The notes under the pieces are model-generated. The model worked only from the letters and a program-made list of their open reading frames with translations. It made no database searches and was not told the origin of the DNA. Of a stretch of DNA of 64,000 nucleotides, positions 5,246-62,836 are shown in pieces. The stretch comes from Actinomycetota bacterium (lineage in GTDB: Bacteria; Actinomycetota; Geothermincolia; Fen-727; Anoxymicrobiaceae), in assembly GCA_018896525.1 (NCBI GenBank), contig JAHIMR010000072.1, positions 32,718-96,717 on the forward strand, given 5' to 3'. The stretch's first letter is position 1. The number at the start of each line of letters is the position of its first letter. Made by a program: the position numbers and the translations under genes.

Positions 5246-5924
5246 AGGCAGTGGAAGCCCGATAATCGCCATCGACGGGCCGGCGGCCTCGGGGAAGAGC
5301 ACGGTTGCGATCACACTTGCCAGGCGCCTGGACCTGCAGCTCGTGGATAGTGGGTCGATGTACCGAACGGTGGCGTTCCTTGCAATGGAGAGCCGGTGCG
5401 GCTCCACCGACGAAATGGCGGTTGGTGCTATCGCCCGAACGGTGCGAGCCGAGTACAGGGCGGAGTTACCCGGAGAAGGGCAGTTGAGGGTTTTCCTCGG
5501 TGAGCGAGATGTGACCGGGGAAATAAGGTCGGCCGAGGCCACCGGGGCGGTTTCCGACGTGTCGCGGATACCGGTGGTCAGGGAGGAGATGGTGGACCTG
5601 CAGCGGTCGATGGTTTCCCGGAGTGGAGCGGTTGTGGAGGGACGGGATATCGGGACAACCGTGTTCCCCGACGCGACCCTCAAGGTATTCCTGGAGGCGA
5701 CGGCAGGGGAGAGGGCCCGAAGGCGCTACCGGGAGTACAGGGAGAAGGGGATCGACGCGAACATCTCGGAGGTTGCCCGGCAGATAAGGAAGCGCGACGA
5801 GATAGACTCCTCGCGAGAGTCGAGCCCACTGGCGATCCCGGACGGTGCGTTGCTGATAGACACCACCGAGAAGACGGTTGCACAGGTGGTGGAGGAGATA
5901 GCGGAAGCCCTGGAAGACGTTTGA
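5238..5924 (+). CDS. cmk: Cytidylate kinase
   Basis: P-loop IIAIDGPAASGKST and cytidylate kinase body. ATG 5238 with GGGGGAAGG RBS, overlapping the aroA stop (translational coupling). The ORF-track start at 5181 is too long. Confidence 0.9.
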   Translation: MTEGSGSPIIAIDGPAASGKSTVAITLARRLDLQLVDSGSMYRTVAFLAMESRCGSTDEMAVGAIARTVRAEYRAELPGEGQLRVFLGERDVTGEIRSAEATGAVSDVSRIPVVREEMVDLQRSMVSRSGAVVEGRDIGTTVFPDATLKVFLEATAGERARRRYREYREKGIDANISEVARQIRKRDEIDSSRESSPLAIPDGALLIDTTEKTVAQVVEEIAEALEDV

Positions 5925-5959: not shown

Positions 5960-8527
5960 TCAGAAACCGACAACGTCATGGCCTCCGGGCCACTTACCCT
6001 GGTAGTTGAAGTACATGGGGCGCTCGCAGACAACCGGCAGGTCGGAGGTGACCGTAGCCGAGATGGAGAGCCCCGGGCCGGCGTCGGCGTTGACGTTGAC
6101 GGTGTGGCGGGACCCGGGGGCGACCAGGTGGGACCTCGTTAGCGGTTCGCCTGACTCGGGAAGGTAAGTGATACGGACTGTGGTGGCGCTGTCATGCGGG
6201 TTCTGGATGCAGAGCCACTCCTCGAAGCCGGGGCCGGTGTACCCCTCGGCGAACATCCAGGTGGTCTTGAGCATATTGGCCCCCAGCACGTCGTGCCCCC
6301 CCGGCCACTTGCCACCGTAGTTGAAGTACATGGGGCGCTCGGCGATGAAGGCGTACTCCGAGGTCAGTACGACGGAAACGTCCTTTCCCGGCCCCATCAC
6401 GTCGTTGACCGACAGGGTAAGCCGCCGCCTGTCGGGGATGGAGTAGGACCTCGCCACCGCGTCCCCCTGGCCCTCCCCAACTGTGAACAGGGCGTTGACC
6501 GTCATCGGCTCCGTGTTGGGGTTCTGTATGCAGAGCCACTCGTCAAAGCCTTCGCGCGTAGTGCCTTCCGCGAAGTACCACTCCTTGGCCGGGGAGGTGG
6601 AACCGACTACGCAGTGCCCTCCGCTCCACATGCCGTGGTAGTTGAAGTACATGATGCGTTCCGCCACTATGAACTCGTCCGATTCCACCAGAAGACTGAT
6701 GTTCCTGCCCGCACCTACGTGGTCCGAGGCCCTGAACGTGGACCGGCTGTTGCCCTCCACAGTCTCGGTGAACGAGATACTATTCTGGCCCTCGGGCATA
6801 TAGGTGAAGGTCAGGTTGGCCGTAGTGTTCTCTGGGTTTTGAACCGTTATGTACTCCTCGAAGCCGGGTAGGGTCGTCCCCTCGGCGAAGTACCACCGGT
6901 TCGAGGTGGCGGTGGCCCCGATGACATCGTGCCCTCCCGGCCACAGGCCGCCGTAGTTGAAGTAAAGCGGGCGTTCCGCCACCAGGTCCGCGCTCCTGGA
7001 GCGCACCCGGACTGAGACCTCACGGCCGGCACCCACCATCTCGTTGACGTTGACCGTCAGCCTGCCGTTCGCGGGGATACTTACCGTCTCGCCCTGTGGA
7101 TCGCCTTCCGCGAACATGAACAGGAGTTCCGCCTCGGCATCAGCCGGGTTGCGGTTACCTATGCACAGATACTCCTGGAAGCCCTCCGCTGTATACCCCT
7201 CGGCGAAGTAGAAGGTGGAGCGATAGGTTGGATTGGAGGTTCCGTAGCAACCGGTATGCCGGGAGTCGCGCCTGAACATCGGCCAGGGGAACTTGTCAGG
7301 GTGAAATGTTGCGTCTTTCTGTTCAACCCATACCCTGGGAGGATCGGGGCGGTTGTGGGCGATCTCCACCTTGCCGTCGTCGTCGAAATCGCCCAGCGCC
7401 GGTGCGTTATTGTAGTCATATTCGACATTCACATTGCCGTCACCGTCGGTGTCTCCCAGGGCGGGGGAGGCGAACTCGCAACCGGTGCTTTTCTTGTCAA
7501 GAAGTTTTCCCCCGGATGAGAACGTGTAGCTCTCCTGGTGTAAGTCCAGAGCCACTACCTCGAGCTCCCCGTCACCGTTGACGTCCCCCACCGCCGGCGA
7601 GGAGAAAACGTACCCCGCGGTGTCGACCGGCCACCCCGGGAGGGGGTTGCCCTGGTAATCCCAGGCGTAGACGTGCCGGCCGTCCACGTTTTCCCAGAAG
7701 TGCCCGGAGCCGATTACGATATCCAGGTAGCCATTACCGTCAAGGTCGGCGAGCGCGGGGGACGACCACTCGACCTGGGGAAGCCACTTCGGCCAGCCCG
7801 GCAGGCTCTGCCCGACGCCGTTTAACACGTAGACCAGGCCTCCACTGGGATACATCCAGCCGGAGCAGTCGGCGCCTATCACGACCTCGTTCAGGCCGTC
7901 CCCGTTGACGTCCCCGATGGCGGGGCTGCTCCATATCGAGTCCCTCACATCCACCGGGTAACCGGCAACCAGCGGGCCCTGGTAATGCCATGCCCATATC
8001 ATGTGCCGCCAGCTTCCGGTCACGATCTCCATGTCCCCGTCACCGTCGATGTCCCCGATCGACGGTGAGGAGAAGACGCCGACCTCCACCCCGGCGGAGG
8101 ACCCCTCCCAAGCTTTCTTGGGCCATCCCCACTGGGTGAGTTGTCCGCCCTGGTGGTCAAACCCCCACAGGTAGCCGCTGTTGTTGCCGACGAAGATCTC
8201 CATGTCCCCGTCACCGTCAACATCCCAGGCGGCGGGGCTCGAGCCGACCCAGTCACCGGTGTCGAACTCCCATCTCTGGGAGCCGTCGCAGTTCAGGCAA
8301 CGCAGGTAATCACCGTCGCCGCAGAGTATCTCCTCCTTGCCGTCCCCGTCGATATCGGCGGCACAGGGGGAGGACCTGGCGCCGTCTGCATAGTTGATAC
8401 CCATTGTACCTGACGGACCGATTCCCGACGCTGCGGCTCCCGCTCCTGGCATATGGCAGGGCAACAGAAGCGCAAATGTCAGCACAAATGTAATTCCGGC
8501 GGCAACTGGACCGACCCTCTGGCGCAT
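5960..8527 (-). CDS. Large secreted protein: signal peptide, ~7 FG-GAP/VCBS-like repeats (integrin-alpha-type beta-propeller), then four tandem ~105-aa repeats of unknown function
   Basis: N-terminal signal peptide (MRQRVGPVAAGITFVLTFALLLP). Repeated calcium-binding-like loops GDIDGDGDMEI, GDVNGDGLNEVV, ADLDGNGYLDIV, GDVNGDGELEVV, GDTDGDGNVNV, WDVDGDGDMEIF, ADIDGDGKEEIL. The C-terminal half has 4 tandem units sharing W/YFAEG(Y/T)T..GFEE(W/Y)L.IQNP...ERPMYFNYGGKWPGGHDV. Probable ATG start at 8527 with a GAGGTG SD; the ORF track extends to GTG 8533. Confidence 0.8.
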   Translation of the reverse strand: MRQRVGPVAAGITFVLTFALLLPCHMPGAGAAASGIGPSGTMGINYADGARSSPCAADIDGDGKEEILCGDGDYLRCLNCDGSQRWEFDTGDWVGSSPAAWDVDGDGDMEIFVGNNSGYLWGFDHQGGQLTQWGWPKKAWEGSSAGVEVGVFSSPSIGDIDGDGDMEIVTGSWRHMIWAWHYQGPLVAGYPVDVRDSIWSSPAIGDVNGDGLNEVVIGADCSGWMYPSGGLVYVLNGVGQSLPGWPKWLPQVEWSSPALADLDGNGYLDIVIGSGHFWENVDGRHVYAWDYQGNPLPGWPVDTAGYVFSSPAVGDVNGDGELEVVALDLHQESYTFSSGGKLLDKKSTGCEFASPALGDTDGDGNVNVEYDYNNAPALGDFDDDGKVEIAHNRPDPPRVWVEQKDATFHPDKFPWPMFRRDSRHTGCYGTSNPTYRSTFYFAEGYTAEGFQEYLCIGNRNPADAEAELLFMFAEGDPQGETVSIPANGRLTVNVNEMVGAGREVSVRVRSRSADLVAERPLYFNYGGLWPGGHDVIGATATSNRWYFAEGTTLPGFEEYITVQNPENTTANLTFTYMPEGQNSISFTETVEGNSRSTFRASDHVGAGRNISLLVESDEFIVAERIMYFNYHGMWSGGHCVVGSTSPAKEWYFAEGTTREGFDEWLCIQNPNTEPMTVNALFTVGEGQGDAVARSYSIPDRRRLTLSVNDVMGPGKDVSVVLTSEYAFIAERPMYFNYGGKWPGGHDVLGANMLKTTWMFAEGYTGPGFEEWLCIQNPHDSATTVRITYLPESGEPLTRSHLVAPGSRHTVNVNADAGPGLSISATVTSDLPVVCERPMYFNYQGKWPGGHDVVGF

Positions 8528-8654
8528 GTTCACCTCTACACTCTATTCTTGGATTGATTGTAATCCCAACCATCCCTTCTTGCAAAAGCGGCCTGGTCCC
8601 TTCCTCGCCACCCAAAGGTGCCTTCATGGCCAACCAGTGGGGTCAGCGCCTTCA

Positions 8655-8689
8655 AATGACACCCTGGTGCCAGGCACCAGGGTGTCATT
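8655..8689. repeat. Perfect 35-bp palindromic element (AATGACACCCTGGTGCC-A-GGCACCAGGGTGTCATT), one of a family of four loci
   Basis: Read directly: 17-bp arms are exact reverse complements. The same architecture occurs at 24948-25016, 43742-43776 and 56995-57029. Confidence 0.8.
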
Positions 8690-8910
8690 ATGTGGCTTTT
8701 GTTTATTTGTGAGGGAAGGTTGGGTCAGCGGTTGTGTAATAGGGGAGGATGTCGTATTATCTCAGCGCTATCAGAGTAGAGGTAGAAGGCCGGTAATAGA
8801 AGGTGGTGGTGGGGTTCTAGAGAGGAACCGCGGAGTTTTTATCAAGCCCCGGGTCGCGGACAGGGGTTTTTTATTGAGATGGAGACAGGCCGATTGAAAG
8901 GAGAGGTCAG

Positions 8911-10221
8911 ATGGGAAGCAAGGAAGATCCGTACAGGGTTGTTTTGAGCGAGAACGAGATACCGGATGCGTGGTACAACATAATGCCGGACCTGCCGGTG
9001 CCTCCACCACCACCGATACACCCGGCGACCAGGGAGCCGTGCACCGCGGACGACCTGTTGCCGCTGTTCCCATTGGAACTGGTGAAGCAGGAGGTCAGCC
9101 AGGAGCGCTACATCGAGATTCCGGAGCCGGTAATGGACGTGTATAAGCTGTACCGACCCAGCCCGTTGCACAGGGCTTACCGACTGGAGAAAGAGCTGGA
9201 CACCCCGGCCAAGATATTCTACAAGAACGAGAGCTTGAGCCCCGCCGGGAGCCACAAGCCGAATACGGCCATACCACAGGCGTACTACAACAAGGCGGAG
9301 GGTGTCGAGCACCTGACCACCGAGACCGGCGCCGGCCAGTGGGGGAGCGCGCTCGCGCTCGGTTGCAAGCTGTTCGGGATTGACCTCGAGGTCTACATGG
9401 TGAAGATAAGCTACCAGCAGAAGCCGTACCGGCGTACCATGATAGAAACCTGGGGAGCGAAAGTATTCGCCAGCCCCACCGACAGGACCGAGGCCGGCAG
9501 GGCGATGCTGGCGGAGGACCCGGACTGCCCGGGAAGCCTGGGGCTCGCCATCAGCGAGGCGGTGGAGGCCTGCATGACCAGCGACAACACCAAGTACGCG
9601 CTGGGGAGCGTTCTCAACCACGTATGCATGCACCAGACCATAGTGGGCCTGGAGGCGAAGGCGCAGATGGAGAAGATAGACGAGTACCCGGACGAGGTTA
9701 TCGGGTGCGTGGGAGGCGGAAGTAACTACTCGGGCCTGGCTTTCCCGTTCATGAAAGACAAGTTCGATGGAAAGGAACTCCGCTTCATCGCGGTGGAGCC
9801 GGTTTCCTGCCCCACGTTGACCAAGGGCAAGTACGAGTACGACTTCGGCGACCAGGCGGAGACTACCCCTCTGCTGAAGATGTACACCCTGGGACACAAG
9901 TTCATCCCGTCACCCATTCACGCCGGGGGTCTTCGGTACCACGGCGACGCGCCGCTGCTGTCGCTGCTGGTGAATGAGGGGTACATGGACGCGGTGGCTT
10001 ACCGGCAGACGGAGGTGTTCGAGGCGGCGATGATGTTCGCCCGCACAGAGGGGATTATCATCGCCCCGGAGACCGCGCACTGCGTAAAGTACACAATTGA
10101 CGAGGCGCTGAAGTGCCGCGAGAGCGGAGAGAGCAAGACCTTGCTGTTCAACCTGAGCGGCCACGGCCTGCTGGACCTCAAGGGTTACGAGGAGTACCTG
10201 GCGGGGAACCTCGTAGACTAG
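8911..10221 (+). CDS. trpB: Tryptophan synthase beta-chain-like PLP enzyme, TrpB2 family (stand-alone, no trpA nearby)
   Basis: 436 aa with the TrpB2-type N-terminal extension, PLP-lysine motif ([13 protein letters not shown]), and GxGxWG and ISYQQKPY regions. AAAGGAGAGG RBS upstream of ATG 8911. Confidence 0.85.
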
Positions 10222-10340
10222 AGCCGCTAAAGGGTTCCTGCGGTCATGTAAGAAGTATCTCCTGGAGAAACGTTAATCCTTGTGGAGGGGTTAAGTGTGT
10301 GTACTCAGTCTTTACGGTAGGAGATGCGAGGTGAGGCGTC

Positions 10341-11120
10341 GTGGTAATGATATGCCCCAGTTGCGGAGCAGAGAACCCTGACAACTCGCAGTACTGTAAC
10401 CTGTGCCTGGATTGCATCGGTTTTGAGAACCTGGAGTACACGAGCGCCGACCAGCAGGACGAAGGGTATATGCAGCAGTACCCCTCGAGCTTTCAGGAGG
10501 GAGCGGAGACGGTCGGCGGCGCGCCTGTCGACTACCCCCCCGAGGTACAGCAGGCTCCTTATTCGGCGCCGGTTGATATAGGAGAGTACGGAACACGGTC
10601 GGGAGCCGCACAGCCGGACCCGGTTGTGATTGATCCGGCATACATCGATTACCAATACGCGGCCGGGGGCACATATGATGTGGGTGAAAGGGTGTTCCCG
10701 TGGAACAAGGCGCTATGGGTATGCCTGTACGTATCACTGTTCGCGGCGGCCACGTCGATTATGCTCGAGTTAACATTCGGCTTTATCGGGGTCAGCGCCG
10801 CTATCGGCGGCAACCTGACCATGGCCCAGATATGGATTCTACTGGCGCTTCTCATACCGGTCGGAATCTGTGGTCTCATTCCGGGTTACCGCATGGAGGA
10901 GTACGGGTGGGCACTGGGTATCATTACCGTTGGGCTGTGGGCGTTTATCATGAGGCCGCTGTACTACGCGATATTCGGATGGATGATGTCCAGCCAGTTC
11001 ACGTTCTCGATGTCGGTGGACAAAGGTAGCCTGCTGTTCATCTTCGGGCTTTTCCTTCCGCTGGGCGCCCTGCTGGGATGGCTGGGGGAGAAGCGCGCCA
11101 CCACCGGCCTGTGGATTTGA
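10341..11120 (+). CDS. Hypothetical membrane protein: N-terminal zinc ribbon (CPSCGAENP...CNLC), Pro/Gln-rich linker, four predicted TM helices
   Basis: CxxC...CxxC at the N-terminus and a hydrophobic C-terminal half (WVCLYVSLFAAATSIMLELTFGFIGV..., ILLALLIPVGICGLIPG...). No recognisable enzymatic motif. Confidence 0.6.
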   Translation: MVMICPSCGAENPDNSQYCNLCLDCIGFENLEYTSADQQDEGYMQQYPSSFQEGAETVGGAPVDYPPEVQQAPYSAPVDIGEYGTRSGAAQPDPVVIDPAYIDYQYAAGGTYDVGERVFPWNKALWVCLYVSLFAAATSIMLELTFGFIGVSAAIGGNLTMAQIWILLALLIPVGICGLIPGYRMEEYGWALGIITVGLWAFIMRPLYYAIFGWMMSSQFTFSMSVDKGSLLFIFGLFLPLGALLGWLGEKRATTGLWI

Positions 11121-11156
11121 GCATCACCGCTAACTGACATGACCGGTATCAACTTA

Positions 11157-11319
11157 GCACCCCGCTCCATAAATACGCTGGCATTCGAACGCCGCTGCAT
11201 CCACTCCGGCTGCGTTCCGCTCCCTCGACGTACTCCAGGAGTACGACTCGGTCGCGCGCCTTGCCGGAGCGGCGCTTCGACGCTCTCGGTGCTCAACCGT
11301 ATTCATGGAACGAGGCACT
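11157..11319 (+). mobile_element. MITE copy 1 (~163-bp imperfect-palindrome element with TIRs; orientation A)
   Basis: Begins ACCCCGCTCCATAAATACGCTGGCATTCGAACGCC, has a central GTACTCCAGGAGTAC palindrome, and ends CGTATTCATGGAACGAGGCACT. Near-identical copies at 15004-15227, 30045-30290, 55112-55275 and 62673-62836. Confidence 0.85.
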
Positions 11320-11343
11320 TGAAGTAGATGTCTGTTATCATAG

Positions 11344-11601
11344 GTGCGTAAGTTTCATGTCTGGAGGTTGGCAATGGAGATGCTGGCAGTGTTGATAGAG
11401 TGGTCCAGCAGGTGGACAATCGTCATGTTCGCCGGCCTCGCGCTGGCGATTATCCTGGGGACCTGGGCCGGCGCGGTGGCCGGCCGTAAAGGCCGTAGCA
11501 CGCAGTTATGGTTCATCCTGGGGTTTTTTCTCCCGATAGTAGGGCTTGTCATTATTTACATACTGAAGCCGGTGAAGCCGTCTGAGGGTGAGAAGAAGTA
11601 G
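11344..11601 (+). CDS. Small hypothetical membrane protein (two TM helices)
   Basis: ORF with GGAGG RBS before the internal ATG at 11374 (MEMLAVLIEW...); hydrophobic segments FAGLALAIILGTWAGAVAG and WFILGFFLPIVGLVIIYIL. The start is either 11344 or 11374. Confidence 0.5.
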   Translation: MRKFHVWRLAMEMLAVLIEWSSRWTIVMFAGLALAIILGTWAGAVAGRKGRSTQLWFILGFFLPIVGLVIIYILKPVKPSEGEKK

Positions 11602-11644
11602 CGCCGGCGCCGACCGTCGAGTCATAGGTGTCACAAGCGGAACG

Positions 11645-12126
11645 CCATAAGCGGTCCACGAGCAAACGCACAAAAGCAAAGCGTCCGGTAATCGTTACAG
11701 CAATTCAGTATCGCTAGATAAGCCGTGCTACGGAGAGCAAGCGGTCCACGAGCAAACGCACACAAGCAAGCGGTGTTGAAACATCTAAGCTGCTGCTACG
11801 GTGTGCAAACGGTCCACGAGCAAACGCACATGAGCAAAGCGTCCGGTAATCGTTACAGCAATTCAGTATCGCTAGATAAGCCGTGCTACGGAGAGCAAGC
11901 GGTCCACGAGCAAGCGCACACAAGCAAGCGGTGTTGAATCGTTACATCCATACATTATCGTGAGACAAGCAGAGCTACGGTGAGCAAGCGCAGCACGAGC
12001 AAACGCACACAAGCAAGCGGTGTTGAATCGTTACATCCATGCATTATCGTGAGACAAGCAGAGCTACGGTGAGCAAGCGCAGCACGAGCAAACGCACATG
12101 AGCAAACGGACGATACACATCTAAGC
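11645..12126. repeat. Complex tandem-repeat array: six copies of a 33-bp core (GCGGTCCACGAGCAAACGCACAMRAGCAAGCGG) embedded in higher-order ~161-bp (x2) and ~90-bp (x2) units
   Basis: Core copies at ~11650, 11740, 11808, 11898, 11985 and 12075. The inter-core segments are themselves repeated (11683-11739 matches 11841-11897; 11938-11984 matches 12029-12074). The array abuts the 3' end of tRNA-Leu. Confidence 0.85.
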
Positions 12127-12213
12127 TGGTGCCGAAGGCCGGACTCGAACCGGCACGGGGTTTTACCCCACTGGTTTTTGAGACCAGCGCGTATACCATT
12201 CCGCCACTTCGGC
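12127..12213 (-). tRNA. tRNA-Leu(CAA), class II with long variable arm, encoded CCA
   Basis: Reverse complement GCCGAAGTGGCGGAATGGTATACGCGCTGGTCTCAAAAACCAGTGGGGTAAAACCCCGTGCCGGTTCGAGTCCGGCCTTCGGCACCA. It folds as a cloverleaf with a 7-bp acceptor stem, anticodon loop CUCAAAA (anticodon CAA), variable stem GGGG/CCCC, T-loop TTCGAGT, and closely resembles E. coli leuX. Confidence 0.93.
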
Positions 12214-12295
12214 AACGTCTTTGAGTTATTATACAGGTAGCGGGGTGCTCCTCGCAGTTACCATGAACCCGCGCGGATAACGGACGGACTCCAAC

Positions 12296-15010
12296 ATGGG
12301 GGCGAGTGTGGCTGAACAGAGAAAGGTCTTGCTGATAGATGGGCATAGCCTTGCCTACAGGGCCTTCTACGCACTTCCCGAAACGATGACTACCGCGGAC
12401 GGACAGCCGACCAACGCGGTCTTCGGATTCACCAGCATGCTGCTAAAGGTGATTGACGAGAAGAAGCCGGACGCTGTGATAGTGGCGTTTGACATCTCTC
12501 GCAAGGACCTGAAGCGGACACATGAGTACCCGGAGTACAAGGCGCACCGCCCGCCCATGCCGGACGAGCTTGGAACACAGATTTCGATGATCGGGGAACT
12601 GCTGGAGCATATGAGGATACCGGCCGTCAGGGCGCAGGGGCACGAGGCGGATGACGTCCTGGGGACCCTGGCGGATGAAGTAGCCGGCCGCGGAGATGAG
12701 GCGATAATCGTTACCGGTGACAGGGACACGCTTCAACTGGTGCGAGACGGGGTGACCGTGCTCATGACCGGGAAGGGGATAACCGAGACCCGGGAGTACG
12801 ACCGGGGCGCGGTTCAAGAGGAGTACGGGGTCCCGCCCGAGAAACTGCCGGAGATCGCCGGTCTCAAGGGCGACTCCTCCGATAATATCCCCGGGGTCCC
12901 GGGCATAGGCATAAAGGGCGCGTCGGCGCTTATCGGAAAGTACGGGTCGTTGGAGAACCTCTACGACCACCTGGAAGAGATAACAGGCCCCAAAAGGAAG
13001 CTATCCCTCGAGGAGAACCGGGAGCAGGCGTTCCTGTCCAGGCGGCTGGCCACTATCGAGAAGGCAGTGCCGGTCCGGCTCGATGTGGGCGAGGTGGAGT
13101 TGGAGACCTGGGATGCGGACGAGGTGCTCGAGTACCTGTCATCGCTCCAGTTCAAGAGGCTTGCCCGGAAGTTCGCCATGATGTACGGGGAGGAATCGGG
13201 TCCCCATGTGAGAGGTTCGGGTGAAGAGCTGCCATATACGGCGGTTCCCGGCGACCGGAAGTCGCTGAAGGAGTTCCTGTCGGGCGCGCGCGATGCCGGG
13301 GAGGTCGCGGTGGCCATCTCGCTCTCCGGGGAGGGTTACTGCGACCTCCGGCTGGAGGGGGCCGCTATAGCCACCGGAAACGCGGTACTGGTGGCCGCCG
13401 GGAGCGATGACGAACCCGCGATGGATGTAGTCGGCGACATCTTGCGCTCGCCGGAGATAGAGAAGTGGTTCCACGGTGCCAAGGAGGCGCTGGAAGCGCT
13501 GGATAAGAAGAAGATGACGGTACGCGGAGTGGCTTTCGACACCAAGGTGGCCGCCTATCTGAAGAACCCATCACTGGGGAAGTATGCTCTCGAGGATATC
13601 TGGGAGAGAAACGTGGGTGCCACGGTCCTGGTGGATGGCGAGTCGGTTCGGGTGCGTGAGCAGGAATCGTTGCTGGCCCCCGACGAGGGTGAGGAGCGGC
13701 TCCGGCTTGCATCCGAGGCGGCCCGTATCTTCAACCTGAAGCGGGTCATCGAAAGGGATATCACCGATCTGGGGATGGCGAGACTCTTCCGCGACATCGA
13801 GATGCCGCTTATCCTGGTGCTCAAGGGCATGGAGGAAACCGGTGTGGCCCTGGACGCGGAAGTGGTGGAGAGGCTGGCCGATGAGGCCGGCCTTGCTCTG
13901 GTGGAACTGAAGGAGGATATACACCGGCTGGCCGGGCATGAGTTCAACGTGAGTTCCACCAGGCAGCTTGGGCGCGTTCTTTTCGAGGAGATGGGTATTC
14001 CTCCAGTCAGGAAGACCAAGGCCGGGTTCTCCACCGACTCCACGGTATTGAGGTCATTGAAGGACGAGTGGGAGATAGCCGGTAAGGTTATCGCCTTCAG
14101 GGAAAACGCCAAGCTCAAGTCCACCTACTACGACACGTTGCCGCGTCTAGTCTGTCCTGAGAGCGGAAGGATACACTGCTCGTTCAACCAGACCGCCACC
14201 TCAACCGGGAGGATATCCTCGAGCAATCCAAACCTGCAGAATATTCCGGTGAGAACGGATGATGGCAGGCGGATCAGGAAGGCGTTCGTTCCCGGAGGGC
14301 CGGGATGGAAGATGCTGGTGGCCGACTACTCACAGATAGAGTTGAGGGTCCTTGCCCATATGTCGGGAGACGAGCGGATGATCGGCGCGTTTGCTTCCGG
14401 GGCCGATATTCACCGGCAGACCGCCGCGGAGATCTTTGGAGTCGAGGAAGGGGACGTCACCGACGACATGAGGCGGAAGGCCAAGGTGGTGAACTTCGGG
14501 ATAATCTACGGCATGGGCCGGTACGGGTTATCGTCCCGGATGGGGATATCGGTGGAACGGGCTACGGAGTACATCGAGGCGTATTTCATAAGGTACGATG
14601 GTGTACGGGAGTACAGAGAGAGGTGCGTAGCTGAAGCGGAGGAGAAGGGGTATGCGGAAACGCTTCTGGGGAGGCGAAGGCTTTTGCCCGAGCTGGCAAG
14701 CCCGAAGAGGCACACCAGGGAGCTGGGGGAGAGGTTGGCGGTAAACACGCCTATACAGGGGACCGCGGCGGATATCATCAAGAAGGCCATGAACGATGTT
14801 GCCTCCGCCATGGGGGAGGATGGGTTCCAGAGCCGGATGATCATGCAGATACACGATGAGCTCGTCTTTGACGTGGCACCCGGCGAGGGTGACGAACTTA
14901 GTACCCTGGTGGTGGGGCTTATGGCCGGGGTCCTCGACCTGCGAGTTGCCTTGAAGGTGGAGGCCGGCCTGTTCGATAACTGGGGACAGGCTAAGTACCC
15001 CGCTTCATAG
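12296..15010 (+). CDS. polA: DNA polymerase I
   Basis: 904 aa with a 5'-3' exonuclease N-terminus (LLIDGHSLAYRAFYAL), Klenow-like polymerase motifs A/B/C (DYSQIELR..., RRKAKVVNFGIIYG, QIHDELVFD). The last codons and stop lie inside the MITE terminus. Confidence 0.95.
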   Translation: MGASVAEQRKVLLIDGHSLAYRAFYALPETMTTADGQPTNAVFGFTSMLLKVIDEKKPDAVIVAFDISRKDLKRTHEYPEYKAHRPPMPDELGTQISMIGELLEHMRIPAVRAQGHEADDVLGTLADEVAGRGDEAIIVTGDRDTLQLVRDGVTVLMTGKGITETREYDRGAVQEEYGVPPEKLPEIAGLKGDSSDNIPGVPGIGIKGASALIGKYGSLENLYDHLEEITGPKRKLSLEENREQAFLSRRLATIEKAVPVRLDVGEVELETWDADEVLEYLSSLQFKRLARKFAMMYGEESGPHVRGSGEELPYTAVPGDRKSLKEFLSGARDAGEVAVAISLSGEGYCDLRLEGAAIATGNAVLVAAGSDDEPAMDVVGDILRSPEIEKWFHGAKEALEALDKKKMTVRGVAFDTKVAAYLKNPSLGKYALEDIWERNVGATVLVDGESVRVREQESLLAPDEGEERLRLASEAARIFNLKRVIERDITDLGMARLFRDIEMPLILVLKGMEETGVALDAEVVERLADEAGLALVELKEDIHRLAGHEFNVSSTRQLGRVLFEEMGIPPVRKTKAGFSTDSTVLRSLKDEWEIAGKVIAFRENAKLKSTYYDTLPRLVCPESGRIHCSFNQTATSTGRISSSNPNLQNIPVRTDDGRRIRKAFVPGGPGWKMLVADYSQIELRVLAHMSGDERMIGAFASGADIHRQTAAEIFGVEEGDVTDDMRRKAKVVNFGIIYGMGRYGLSSRMGISVERATEYIEAYFIRYDGVREYRERCVAEAEEKGYAETLLGRRRLLPELASPKRHTRELGERLAVNTPIQGTAADIIKKAMNDVASAMGEDGFQSRMIMQIHDELVFDVAPGEGDELSTLVVGLMAGVLDLRVALKVEAGLFDNWGQAKYPAS

Positions 15011-15227
15011 ATACGGTTAAGCACCGAGAGCGTCGAAGCGTCGCTCCGGCAAGGCGCGCGACTCAGTGCCTCGTTCCATAGATACGGTTAAGCACCGAGA
15101 GCGTCGAAGCGCCGCTCCGGCAAGGCGCGCGACCGAGACGTACTTCCTTAGTACTTCGAGGGAGTGGAACGCAGCCGGTGTGGATGCGGCGGCGTTCGAA
15201 TGCCAGCGTATTCATGGAGCGGGGTAC
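15004..15227 (-). mobile_element. MITE copy 2 (orientation B) with an extra ~60-bp tandem partial copy of its left end overlapping the polA stop
   Basis: The 15004-15064 half-copy (CATAGATACGGTTAAGCACCGAGAGCGTCGAAGCG...) is followed by the full element 15065-15227, which ends ...CGTATTCATGGAGCGGGGTAC. Confidence 0.85.
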
Positions 15228-15360
15228 TGAATAAGGGGCCCGGACGCACGGTCCAGGGCACGCGTTATACAGATGCAAACCTACCTGATGGCAACTTGCG
15301 GCGATATTACGTATGTGCTATTCATAATAACGTACGTGTTCACGAGAGGGAAGGAAAACC

Positions 15361-17058
15361 ATGATGGAAGACGAGACGGGAACCGAAGAGTACGTCGGGC
15401 AGGTGGAAGAGGACGAGGAAGACCCGCTGACCGGGAAAGGGGCGCGAGAATCGCTGGCCGGGTTGGGATTGGATCCTGAGGAAAGCCAGATAGTGCCGGA
15501 CTACGACGGCACTATGAAGATGTTCAACGAAGGCGATATCGTCAGTGGCTTAGTGGTAAAGGTGGACAAGGAAGAGGTTTTGCTGGATATCGGGTACAAG
15601 TCCGAGGGCGTAATCCCGGCGCGTGAGCTTTCCATCCGCTACGACGCCAAGACATCGGACATCGTGTCACCAGGGGACCGGCTGGAGGCCCTGGTACTGC
15701 AGAAAGAGGATAAAGAAGGGCGGCTGATACTGTCCAAGAAGAGGGCCCAGTACGAGCGGGCCTGGAACAATATCGAGAGCGTAAAGGATGAGGGCGGCGT
15801 AGTCGACGGAGAGGTGATCGAGGTCGTCAAGGGCGGGCTCATACTCGATATAGGCCTGCGCGGGTTCCTCCCGGCATCGCTTGTTGACCTGAGGAGGGTT
15901 AAGGATCTGAACCAGTTCATTGGCCAGACGCTCGAGGCCAAGGTAATCGAGCTCGACAAGAACCGAAACAACGTGGTTCTATCTCGAAGGGCACACCTCG
16001 AGGTGCAGAAATCGACCGAGAGGAAAGAGTTCCTCGAGCAATTAGAGAAGGGAACGAAACACAAGGGGAGCGTCAGTAGCATCGTAAACTTCGGCGCTTT
16101 CGTGGACCTTGGCGGAGTAGACGGGCTGATTCACATCTCCGAGCTCTCCTGGAGCCACGTTGACCATCCCTCGGAGGTACTTGCCGCCGGCGACGAGGTG
16201 GATGTGGAGATCCTCGACGTGGACCTGGAGAGGGAGCGCGTATCGCTCTCGCTCAAGAAAGCGCAGGAAGACCCATGGCAGAAGCTCAGCAAGGAGAAGC
16301 CGGCGGGATCCACGGTACAGGGCAAAGTCACGAAGCTGGTCCCGTTCGGGGCGTTCGTGGAGATTGCTCCCGGCGTAGAGGGGCTGGTACACATCTCCGA
16401 GCTGGCCTGGGAGCATATAGAGTTTCCCGAGGAGGTACTGTCTGTTGGTGACGAGATCGAAGCCAAGATAATAGATATAGACCTGAGCCGCAGGAGGATC
16501 AGTCTGAGCGTAAAGCAGCTGACCGGGCCTGGTGAGGCGGCGGGGTACCAGGAGTACCAGGCCGAACCCGAGCACGAGCCTGACATCGAGCCTGACATCG
16601 AGCCTGACAGTGAGCCCGAGCCAGGGCCCGAACCTGAACTGGTGGAGGCAGAGGAGTTCGAGGAGCGGTTGTCGGGCAAGGCCCCGGAGGAGGAAGCAGA
16701 TAAGAAGCCGGCGCTGACCGAGATAGTGTCTGATGCCGCGGAGATATTGGCCGAGGTGGAACGTATCGAGTCCCAGGTCGCGTCTCCAGAGTACGAGGAA
16801 GCAACTGAGGCGGAGAAAGAGGAACCACCGGCCGCGCCGGCTCCGGAAACAGTAGAAGAGGCTGCCGAAGTCGTCAGCGGGGAAGAGACCCCGGTGGAGG
16901 AAGAGAAGCAAGAGGAAGCCGAGGAGACTCCTGCCGAGGAAGGGACGACTGAATCACCGGAAATCGGCGAGGAGGAAACGCCGGAGAAGCCTGTAGCGGA
17001 GGACGGCTCACTGGAGTCGGTACTTGCCGATATGAAGAAAAAGGGCAGTCAGCCATAA
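15361..17058 (+). CDS. rpsA: 30S ribosomal protein S1 with long acidic C-terminal extension
   Basis: Four S1 domains (GDIVSGLV..., GEVIEVVKGGLILDIG..., GSVSSIVNFGAFVDLGG..., GKVTKLVPFGAFVEI). A C-terminal ~180 aa E/P/D-rich tail includes EPEHEPDIEPDIEPDSEPEPGPEPE. GGGAAGGAAAACC RBS. Confidence 0.93.
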   Translation: MMEDETGTEEYVGQVEEDEEDPLTGKGARESLAGLGLDPEESQIVPDYDGTMKMFNEGDIVSGLVVKVDKEEVLLDIGYKSEGVIPARELSIRYDAKTSDIVSPGDRLEALVLQKEDKEGRLILSKKRAQYERAWNNIESVKDEGGVVDGEVIEVVKGGLILDIGLRGFLPASLVDLRRVKDLNQFIGQTLEAKVIELDKNRNNVVLSRRAHLEVQKSTERKEFLEQLEKGTKHKGSVSSIVNFGAFVDLGGVDGLIHISELSWSHVDHPSEVLAAGDEVDVEILDVDLERERVSLSLKKAQEDPWQKLSKEKPAGSTVQGKVTKLVPFGAFVEIAPGVEGLVHISELAWEHIEFPEEVLSVGDEIEAKIIDIDLSRRRISLSVKQLTGPGEAAGYQEYQAEPEHEPDIEPDIEPDSEPEPGPEPELVEAEEFEERLSGKAPEEEADKKPALTEIVSDAAEILAEVERIESQVASPEYEEATEAEKEEPPAAPAPETVEEAAEVVSGEETPVEEEKQEEAEETPAEEGTTESPEIGEEETPEKPVAEDGSLESVLADMKKKGSQP

Positions 17059-30044: not shown

Positions 30045-30290
30045 CCGTCTCATAAATACGGTGAAGCACCGAGAGCGTCGGTGCGCCGCGCCGGCAAGGC
30101 GCGCGACCGAGTCGTACTCCTGGAGTACGTCGAGAGAGCGGAACGCAGCCGGAGTGGATGCAGCGGCGTTCGAATGCCAGCGTATCTATGTAGCGGGGTA
30201 CCTAGCGTACTCACTGAGTACGTCGCAGGGAGCGGAACGCAGCAGGAGTGGATGCAGCGGCGTTCGAATGCCATTGTATTTGTGAGACGG
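30045..30290 (-). mobile_element. MITE copy 3 (orientation B) plus a ~88-bp tandem partial duplication of its right half
   Basis: The full unit 30045-30201 runs CATAAATACGGTGAAGCACCGAGAGCG...CGTATCTATGTAGCGGGGTAC. The half-copy 30203-30290 repeats the central palindrome and right arm (GTACTCACTGAGTAC...GAATGCCATTGTATTTGTG). Confidence 0.85.
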
Positions 30291-55099: not shown

Positions 55100-55111
55100 A
55101 GGGGAGTAACA

Positions 55112-55275
55112 AGTGCCTCGTTCCATAGATACGGTTAAGCACCGAGAGCGTCGAAGCACCGCTCCGGCAAGGCGCGCGACCGAGTCGTACTCTTGGAGTA
55201 CGTCGAGGGAGCGGAACGCGACCGGAGTGGATGCAGCGGCGTTCGAATGCCAGCGTATTTATGGAGCGGGGTGCT
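55112..55275 (-). mobile_element. MITE copy 4 (orientation B) between lspA and lgt
   Basis: AGTGCCTCGTTCCATAGATACGGTTAAGCACCGAGAGCG...GTACTCTTGGAGTAC...CAGCGTATTTATGGAGCGGGGTGCT. It begins 13 nt after the lspA stop and overlaps the putative lgt start. Confidence 0.85.
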
Positions 55276-56049
55276 AAGACTGTGCACCGGGTGCTATTCA
55301 ACATAGGGAATCTAACGGTCTACTCCTATGGAGTGTTCCTGGCCCTGGGGTTTGTGACGGCGACCATTGTAGCCAGGCGGCGGCTTGCCGAGACCTTCCG
55401 TAACCCTGACATAATCCTTGACCTGGTGCTGGCGGCGGTTGTCGGCGGCATAGCGGGGGCGCGGATCTGCTACATCATAGGGCACTGGTCGTACTACATG
55501 GCCAACAAGGGCGAGATATTGAAGCTCAACATGGACGGGCTGGTGTTCTATGGAGGGCTCCTGCTGGGGTTTGTGCTTGCCGTGCTGGTGGGAAGGTGGA
55601 GGAACGTCAGGTTCTGGGAGGTCATGGACCTGGGCGGGCTGAGCGTTCCCATCGCGCTGGGGGTCGGCAGGATAGGTTGCCTGCTGAACGGATGCTGTTA
55701 CGGGAAGCAGACCTCTCTGCCGTGGGGAATAACGTATCCCGCGACCACCGGCCTGGCAGGCCCCAGGCATCCAACCCAGGTGTACGAGTTACTACTGGAC
55801 CTCGCCCTGTTCGCTTTCCTGTGGTCCAAGAGGGACAGCTGGGAGAGGGATGGCACGTCGTTCTGGTTGTTCGTGATGGGGTACGCGGCCATTCGGTTCA
55901 CAATGGAGTTCTTCCGCGAGCATACCCTTTCCAACGCCGCACTGACTTTCCAGATGGTCAGCGTTGCACTTTTCCTGGTGGCGGGGGCGGTTCTGCTGCT
56001 CCGGTACCGGCTCCTGCCGGAGACCGGCGACAGGGGCCTGCCACTCTGA
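55261..56049 (+). CDS. lgt: Prolipoprotein diacylglyceryl transferase
   Basis: Lgt signature (GGLLLGFVLAVLVGRW..., RIGCLLNGCCYGK). The start is uncertain: ATG 55261 lies in the MITE terminus, and GTG 55291 is an alternative. The ORF-track start 55231 is inside the MITE. Confidence 0.88.
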   Translation: MERGAKTVHRVLFNIGNLTVYSYGVFLALGFVTATIVARRRLAETFRNPDIILDLVLAAVVGGIAGARICYIIGHWSYYMANKGEILKLNMDGLVFYGGLLLGFVLAVLVGRWRNVRFWEVMDLGGLSVPIALGVGRIGCLLNGCCYGKQTSLPWGITYPATTGLAGPRHPTQVYELLLDLALFAFLWSKRDSWERDGTSFWLFVMGYAAIRFTMEFFREHTLSNAALTFQMVSVALFLVAGAVLLLRYRLLPETGDRGLPL

Positions 56050-62100: not shown

Positions 62101-62672
62101 ACCGGGAACTGCTGTCGGGTTTTACCGATATCGAGATATCCCAGATATCAAAGGATATGGACAAGGCGGTGTTGACCATCGGCGGCCTTATTACCGGGCT
62201 GGAGAAGCGGTATAACAAGGCGGGGAAGCCGTGGGCGAGCTTTACGCTGGAGGATTTCTCGGGATCGATGGACGTGCTGCTGTTCCACCACAAGTACGAG
62301 AAGTTCGCCGATGCGCTCTCGGAAGACGCTATAGTACTGGTCAAGGGGAGGGTGGACCTCAAGGACAGCTCACGGAAGCTGCTGGCGGACGAGGTACGGT
62401 TACTTCCCAGGAACTCGATGCGTCCTACCCACCTGGTGCTCAAGATAGACGCCGCCTGGTTTACCGAGGATAGGACCTCGCAGGTGCAGGAGGTCCTGAT
62501 GCAGCATCCCGGGGAGTTGCAGGTGTACTTTCAGCTGTACGAGAACGGTGAGGAAACGACCACCGTTAGATTGGGGGATTTATACTCGGTGGGGACGGAC
62601 AGTGACGTTCTGGGCAAGCTCAGGGCGCTTCTCGGGGAGTCCGCGGTGGCCCTGGAGTACCCGGAGATCTGA
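59166..62672 (+). CDS. dnaE: DNA polymerase III alpha subunit (DnaE1-type)
   Basis: PHP domain (HLHLHTEYSILDGA), polymerase core, OB fold. Start GTG 59166 (AAGGAG RBS) or TTG 59227. Its stop is immediately followed by a MITE. Confidence 0.95.
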   Translation: MKENATTQRNIIRSPGSREINLSQEFVHLHLHTEYSILDGACRISEALEAAREMGMDSLAITDHGVMYGVLEFYQKALKHDMRPILGVEVYVAPRGRLSRAGGMEERPNHLILIAENNTGYENLMRIVTRGFTEGFYYKPRVDKEVLTEHSEGLIALSACLKGEIPVALLAGDDALAATVADEYLRIFGENNFYIELMNHGIEEQVRVNPMLVEFARGKGIGLVATNDIHYVKPEDSKAHDYLLCIQTGKLLAEQSRMRFSTEEFYMKSPDQMADLFPDFPEALSNTVDIASRCNVEIPLDTVYLPRYDPPEGYDLDSFLEHLALEGVEERFTEISVEVTQRLEKELKIIQELGFSGYFLIVWDFVKYAKEKGIKVGPGRGSAAGSLVAYALGITTIDPLKYGLLFERFLNPERIALPDIDIDFSHDRRSEVIEYVGNKYGKDRVAQIISFSRLNTRAAVKDVGRVMDIPYARMDTLSKMVPEDPKMNIELALKQSSELRNAYENDKEVREIVDTARSLEGLVRHDTIHAAGVVIADNELNKYTPLQRKGGDDSEVVTQYDMYNIENLGLLKVDLLGLRNQSLLELAVNLINDRYGGELEIDSIPMDDPETFKLVQRGETVGTFQLASPGMRALMRDLVPTRFEEIIALIALYRPGPLSSDMHKVFVEQKHGRKAVSYPHPSLEEVLKETYGVIVYQEQAMRISQVLSGYSGLEADQLRKAMAKKQEDKMAEHRDKFIGGACDRGVEKIVATRVFDLIEKFGGYGFNKSHSTAYAFVSYQTAYLKAHYPSEYMAALMTIYMDNQDRLVEYINECRRMGLEVRLPDINKSDGNFTPFDKYVLFGLSAVKNVGTAVVEQIIKARDEGEEFKSFMEFCDRVPASVTNKKTLESFIKAGAFDTIEADRSRLLATYDVAVSIAQRKRREKEEGQFSLFDDSNDVDDVSSGGLPDDYTEIPKRQLLAWEREMLRVFVSDHPLTDYRELLSGFTDIEISQISKDMDKAVLTIGGLITGLEKRYNKAGKPWASFTLEDFSGSMDVLLFHHKYEKFADALSEDAIVLVKGRVDLKDSSRKLLADEVRLLPRNSMRPTHLVLKIDAAWFTEDRTSQVQEVLMQHPGELQVYFQLYENGEETTTVRLGDLYSVGTDSDVLGKLRALLGESAVALEYPEI

Positions 62673-62836
62673 GTACCCCGCTCCATAGATACGCTGGCAT
62701 TCGAACGCCGCTGCATCCACTCCGGCTGCGTTCCGCTCCCTCGAAGTACTACAGGAGTACGTACTCGGTCGCGCGCCTTGCCGGAGCGGCGCTTCGACGC
62801 TCTCGGTGCTTAACCGTATCCATGGAACGAGGCACT
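62673..62836 (+). mobile_element. MITE copy 5 (orientation A) starting at the nucleotide after the dnaE stop
   Basis: GTACCCCGCTCCATAGATACGCTGGCATTCGAACGCC...GTACTACAGGAGTAC...CGTATCCATGGAACGAGGCACT. Confidence 0.85.

Follow-up and report, generated by a model that had tools for sequence, protein, structure and literature searches.

On balance, we favor the view that the repeats lying directly 3′ of a tRNA-Leu(CAA) gene in the DNA examined here form a lineage-specific, hypervariable intergenic minisatellite (VNTR), interspersed in the manner of MIRUs and driven by slippage or recombination. Such a minisatellite is probably neutral. An initial annotation of the same DNA had offered a satellite, an integration scar, a protein-binding array and a tandem sRNA locus as explanations; the satellite is the one that the evidence favors.

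Results

Organization of the array

Six head-to-tail units fill positions 11651–12126 of the window (the whole 64-kb stretch of DNA that was analyzed). They occupy the gap between two convergent genes, that for a 75-aa membrane protein on the plus strand and the 3′ end of tRNA-Leu(CAA) on the minus strand. The features are as follows, the spacer and the units being given without strand.

11374–11601, plus strand: gene for the 75-aa two-helix membrane protein (open reading frame), with its stop codon 49 nt upstream of the array
11602–11650: unique spacer ahead of the array, which includes GTCATAGGTG at 11621–11630
11651–11740: unit 1, A-type, 90 bp
11741–11808: unit 2, short and C-like, 68 bp, with internal deletions, bearing ACATCTAAGCTG
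11809–11898: unit 3, A-type, 90 bp, equal to unit 1 save at 3 core positions
11899–11987: unit 4, C-type, 89 bp
11988–12076: unit 5, C-type, 89 bp
12077–12126: unit 6, the terminal 50-bp module touching the tRNA, orthologous to the lone copy of L001 and to the lysS-locus module
12127–12213, minus strand: tRNA-Leu(CAA) with encoded CCA (ARAGORN and Rfam); the array lies immediately 3′ on the same strand
12296–15010, plus strand: polA (DNA polymerase I), divergent from the tRNA and serving as synteny anchor

All six copies of the 33-bp core that had been described initially were located, one at the head of every unit (starts at 11651, 11741, 11809, 11899, 11988 and 12077), and the units open with the consensus GCG(GTC/CAG)CACGAGCAA(A/G)CGCACA(AA/CA/TG)AGCAA. 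When the 64-kb window was searched with a 27-nt core probe allowing up to three mismatches, there were four matches, all within the array, against 0.00 expected. TRF assigned the array a period of 89 bp (score 409), and a repeat search recovered a 132-nt family at spacings of 158, 89 and 89; the long period is therefore 158 bp in place of the ~161 bp first reported. The full-length units, 1 and 3 (A-type) and 4 and 5 (C-type), are homologous end to end, with ~69% identity between A- and C-type "spacers", and units 2 and 6 are shortened variants of the 89-bp unit. The core is itself built of three 14–15-nt sub-repeats, each consisting of RAGCAARCG followed by 5–6 nt, and 14 of the 17 matches to this 9-mer in the window fall inside the array (1.7 expected). 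The plus strand of the array is rich in A (33%) and poor in T (15%).

The distribution of differences among the units bears on whether the core is maintained. Between units 1 and 3 there are 3 differences over the 34 core positions and none over the other 56; between units 4 and 5 there are 4 over the 34 core positions and 1 over the other 55. In these recent duplicates the core has thus diverged more than the spacer, and it shows no purifying selection. The variant states (GTC/CAG; AA/CA/TG) are distributed mosaically over the six units, and together with the core differences they point to recombination breakpoints in the core, not to selection on it.

A 12-mer, ACATCTAAGCTG, recurs as initially reported at 11781–11792 and 12117–12128, its final 2 nt overlapping the tRNA CCA. 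Common to the short units 2 and 6, it corresponds in alignment to the ACATC...AAGCAG stretch of the full-length units. The recurrence had been likened to an att-site duplication or integration scar at the tRNA, a suggestion that fails: the 12-mer reflects repeat-unit homology and is not a copy of the tRNA, and the flanks are syntenic in relatives.

With their regular spacing, the 33-bp repeats recall a CRISPR, and a CRISPR-DR4 match falls on a unit junction in L207, at 15 bits, well short of the gathering score (35). We nonetheless reject, with near certainty, a CRISPR-like array, a protein-coding repeat or a structured RNA. In agreement with the initial annotation, which had called the locus a nested tandem array and not a CRISPR, the "spacers" are mutually homologous or duplicated (42/42 and 40/41 identical, or ~69–70% alike between types), and there is no cas gene among the open reading frames of positions 8000–16000 (FG-GAP, PALP, Zn-ribbon, polA, rpsA-like). 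The open reading frames that cross the array are short, as had been noted; they contain stops, and units of 68, 89 and 50 bp disrupt any frame, so a coding repeat was set aside. Folding was worse than in dinucleotide shuffles on both strands (z = +1.8 on each), with single-unit z-scores of −0.2 to +0.8, and the repeat search found no inverted repeats in the array. In the window, Rfam placed the tRNA alone above threshold; across the window and lysS searches, matches to mir-665, mir-74 and CRISPR-DR4 were sub-threshold. A known structured RNA or coding family, either of which would have overturned the first description, is thus not what the array is, and a tandem locus of structured sRNAs is equally at odds with the folding and Rfam results.

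Copy number among strains

The exact 75-aa neighbor protein was found on 11 public contigs. Three independent assemblies (L201, L204 and L205: GCA_018895545.1, GCA_022014015.1 and JGI 3300013391) carry the identical six-unit array, which speaks against an assembly artifact, the concern raised at the outset. ERZ27247113 (L202) carries five units, one 89-bp unit being gone, and its junction joins the core of unit 4 to the spacer of unit 5. GCA_018896015.1 (L203) carries four; units 2 and 3 are gone, and the join lies within a stretch identical in units 1 and 3. The left flank of L203 is just 98.1% identical to the window (~2% different), and L203 is therefore a different strain. Both junctions match the products that would be expected of unequal recombination or slippage between units. 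Copy number thus differs among strains, with 6, 5 and 4 units at the tRNA locus and 1 versus 2 at the lysS locus described below, as read from short-read assemblies in which partial collapse is possible for both the five- and the four-unit allele.

Origin at the tRNA-Leu locus

Loci gathered by way of polA place the organism among uncultured Actinomycetota, close to Anoxymicrobiaceae and Ca. Geothermincolia. The succession of the Zn-ribbon membrane protein, the small membrane protein, tRNA-Leu(CAA) on the opposite strand and polA is kept down to 61% PolA identity (L002, L005), and the order of small gene, tRNA and polA is identical in L001, L002, L005 and L209. Since gene order is conserved in relatives, no island has been inserted at the tRNA locus.

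Comparison of the orthologous tRNA-Leu locus, a check already suggested in the initial annotation, was informative: with the same gene order, relatives carry either a single module or a diverged homologue. The species represented by L001 (~81% DNA identity; seven assemblies) carries only one module, ~50 bp long and next to the tRNA; the module aligns rightward with the terminal unit of the window and leftward with the start of unit 1. In L209, L212 and L213 (~89% identity) the spacer is 178 bp long, and alignment reveals a diverged homologue in the final ~70 nt; these trailers share the CATCCAARC end with the window and contain similar GGCAARYG sub-repeats. L210 and L211 have a different, shorter spacer. 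Given the single module in L001 and the diverged homologue in the ~89% relatives, the array grew in place from the tRNA 3′ trailer, and judged by these alignments it is a species-specific expansion of the sequence just 3′ of tRNA-Leu. One observation counts against the minisatellite reading: a RAGCAARCG-like sub-repeat recurs in trailers at 81–89% identity, so that constraint is possible instead of drift.

Several other features of the neighborhood deserve mention. The Zn-ribbon membrane protein (259 aa, 10341–11120) and the 75-aa protein (11374–11601) are a conserved pair beside tRNA-Leu and polA across the clade; the N-terminal zinc ribbon of the former is just above the Pfam gathering threshold, the sole Pfam match of the latter is sub-threshold, and no other Pfam family was found for the pair. 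The ribosomal protein S1 homologue (15361–17058) is lengthened at its C terminus by an acidic, E/P-rich tail of ~170 aa, an unusual feature in an S1 protein. Separately, an imperfect-palindrome element of ~168 bp is present in five full copies (91–96% identity) in the 64 kb, and it also has partial copies.

11153–11321, plus strand: ~168-bp element, full copy
15065–15228, minus strand: full copy
30051–30199, minus strand: full copy
55110–55278, minus strand: full copy
62669–62836, plus strand: full copy
14993–15062 and 30206–30284: partial copies (89–90%)

The orthologous site is empty in L001 and L209; the element occupies another site, between tRNA and polA, in L210 and L213, and it is also found in L189. 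From this pattern it seems to behave like a MITE-type mobile element.

A second copy of the module at lysS

A module profile search across 1.9 Mb found two loci alone, tRNA-Leu and the spacer between lysS and mcsA. The first sign of the latter was L189, a contig from the same sample as a window-identical contig, which ends within a core copy just past lysS; it was the sole informative match among the metagenome pattern matches listed (15 specified bases), the rest being chance matches. In the same species (L214, L216) there is a 134-bp insertion at the lysS stop codon, comprising a hairpin (13-bp stem), a linker and a ~52-bp core-plus-tail module, and flanked by GGTAGATCACAGTG and GGTAGGTCATAGGTG, an imperfect 14–15-bp direct repeat. 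A sister strain (lysS 98% identical; L207, L227, L228) carries the insertion as two tandem copies, and two related species (lysS 94% and 89%; L206 and L208) have an empty site, GGTAGGTCATAGGTG.

L214 4523–4670: lysS insertion
L207 1762–2029: lysS insertion, doubled
L206 ~2392–2406: empty site
L208 ~5523–5537: empty site

The insertion overlaps the stop codon, altering the final LysRS residues, and its hairpin keeps the stem and varies in the interior. Several assemblies break inside the element, which accounts for their ending after lysS. Because the module is found at lysS–mcsA as well, where it is again tandemly duplicated, the family behaves like an interspersed repetitive unit. The identity of the module between the two loci, 80–90%, counts against the minisatellite reading.

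We considered several identities for the hairpin half of the insertion. A degenerate tRNA was rejected (ARAGORN and Rfam negative), as was homology to the regions preceding the module in relatives, the similarity not being significant. Rfam returned sub-threshold noise only on the lysS element, and blastn found no other copies of the hairpin half. The flank sequence GTCATAGGTG occurs exactly once in the window, at 11621–11630, 20 nt before the array; a copy with one mismatch, ATCATAGGTG, lies at 11337–11346, where the −10 region of the small gene probably falls.

The clean 134-bp insertion at lysS, with its direct repeat and an empty site in relatives, and the presence of GTCATAGGTG beside the window array too, would be compatible with a mobile-element footprint, that is, either the att scar left by an integrative element with a tRNA target or a small non-autonomous site-specific element that was then amplified. 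We regard such a footprint as very unlikely. Every close relative carries the module at the tRNA locus as an orthologue and not as an insertion; the distal end of the array bears no duplicated piece of the tRNA, blastn of array plus tRNA against related loci found the tRNA only at its own orthologous position, and ARAGORN called a single tRNA gene in the window. The flanking genes are housekeeping genes in conserved order, and in the compared loci L001, L002, L005 and L209 there is no inserted cargo or integrase that would be missing from an empty site in relatives. The lysS insertion, read from its sequence, has no terminal inverted repeats, searches of phage, plasmid and viral-contig collections gave no match, and only two loci turned up in the 1.9 Mb searched.

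Possible functions of the repeats

Several observations would fit an array that serves as a tRNA 3′ external transcribed spacer. By analogy with 3′ETS-leuZ of E. coli, such a spacer acting as an sRNA sponge (PMC6191717), it would be co-transcribed with tRNA-Leu and freed by 3′ processing as an unstructured, A-poor RNA, in which up to 14 CGYUUGCUY motifs might titrate an sRNA or RNA-binding protein, copy number setting the dose; partners (an sRNA or a 5′UTR) would be complementary to CCGCUUGCUUGUGUGCGUUUGCUCGUG. Read on the strand of the tRNA, the array follows directly on the CCA; no terminator is predicted between the two, and promoter and terminator prediction found nothing inside the array. 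Self-structure is depleted, as expected of a binding platform, the 9-mer is concentrated in the array, a similar sub-repeat is retained in relatives' trailers, and at lysS the module is followed on the same strand by the conserved hairpin, an sRNA-like layout. The E. coli precedent, whose partner is RyhB (PMC6191717), is close in that it, too, is non-coding, follows immediately on a tRNA-Leu gene in the orientation of the tRNA and could be released by tRNA 3′ processing (PMC6191717). It differs in being single-copy, with an intrinsic terminator and proven sRNA partners, whereas the array is tandem and has neither a detected terminator nor a detected partner. Against a trailer RNA, no complementary target was found elsewhere in the 64-kb window, where the 9-mer is at chance level; the core is more variable than the spacers in recent duplicates; relatives at 89% identity have drifted to ~60–65% in the trailer, by an estimate made by eye from the alignment; and the strand of the lysS copy is antisense to the operon, with no evident promoter. 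We consider a functional trailer RNA of this kind unlikely, if worth keeping in mind.

In an extended form of this idea, the ~52-bp module would be a functional tRNA-Leu 3′-trailer RNA whose dose is tuned by tandem amplification, and the lysS copy would be a whole trailer transcript unit, running from an ACC(A) junction, by way of the module, to a hairpin resembling a terminator, the whole flanked by a 14–15-bp target duplication, and possibly arrived at via an RNA intermediate. We hold this form to be highly improbable; if true, the lysS copy would be a retro-copied bacterial tRNA trailer.

The strong enrichment and even spacing of the 9-mer could also suggest a DNA-level protein-binding array, iteron- or decoy-like, in which RAGCAARCG sites, three per unit at 14–15-bp spacing, would bind a regulator or nucleoid protein. 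This we judge quite unlikely: the array sits between convergent gene ends and not in a promoter region, spacing of 14–15 bp is out of helical phase, sites in the window outside the array are at chance level, copy number is not conserved and no candidate binding protein is encoded alongside. A likeness of GGTCCACG and GTCACAAGCG to DnaA or MtrA boxes was also examined and set aside, with 3 mismatches by eye to the TTGTCCACA box and with the motif missing from units 5 and 6 and from L001.

Discussion

We infer that slippage or recombination drives the minisatellite and that, apart from forming a long trailer, probably co-transcribed, between convergent genes, the array has no function that depends on its sequence. 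Its history probably ran as follows. The ancestor would have been one T-poor module, ~50 bp long and immediately 3′ of tRNA-Leu(CAA), itself composed of two or three 14–15-nt sub-repeats of RAGCAARCG plus 5–6 nt. In the window species, slipped-strand mispairing and unequal recombination between sub-repeats would have given rise to units of ~89 bp, which were then presumably duplicated, partly deleted and reshuffled into the six units seen; the same processes would continue to gain and lose units among strains. One copy of the module would have reached the lysS–mcsA spacer, with tandem duplication following there.

Comparable behavior is known from other short repeats. Pneumococcal BOX elements and enterobacterial BIMEs are repeats that are likewise short, intergenic and non-autonomous, and they contain a module whose tandem number varies; they form families of tens to hundreds of copies with strong stem-loops. 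A tandem-variable module is what the array has in common with them, and it differs in being unstructured and low-copy. MIRUs are actinobacterial minisatellites, mostly intergenic and variable in copy number (PMC3635867). The MIRU-VNTR loci of Mycobacterium tuberculosis are, like the array, found in Actinomycetota as head-to-tail units of 50–100 bp, intergenic, at more than one locus and with strain-variable copy number. At lysS the resemblance extends to a unit that overlaps the end of the upstream open reading frame and lies between same-strand genes, an arrangement given for MIRUs in the passage of PMC3635867 that cites Supply 1997. MIRUs occupy dozens of loci, in contrast to the two found here, and the likeness is one of behavior and not of sequence, homology being unexpected between lineages so far apart; the array further differs in lying between convergent genes, in abutting a tRNA and in being built from a 14–15-nt sub-repeat.

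Biologically the finding is modest; only a functional trailer RNA would give it greater weight. Its practical value, likewise modest, would be as a strain-typing marker (4, 5 or 6 units at the tRNA locus; 1 or 2 at lysS) for an uncultured subsurface lineage of Actinomycetota near Ca. Geothermincolia. The loci also illustrate cleanly, step by step, the birth of a minisatellite from a tRNA trailer, from diverged homologue to one module to a six-unit array, together with the seeding of a second locus.
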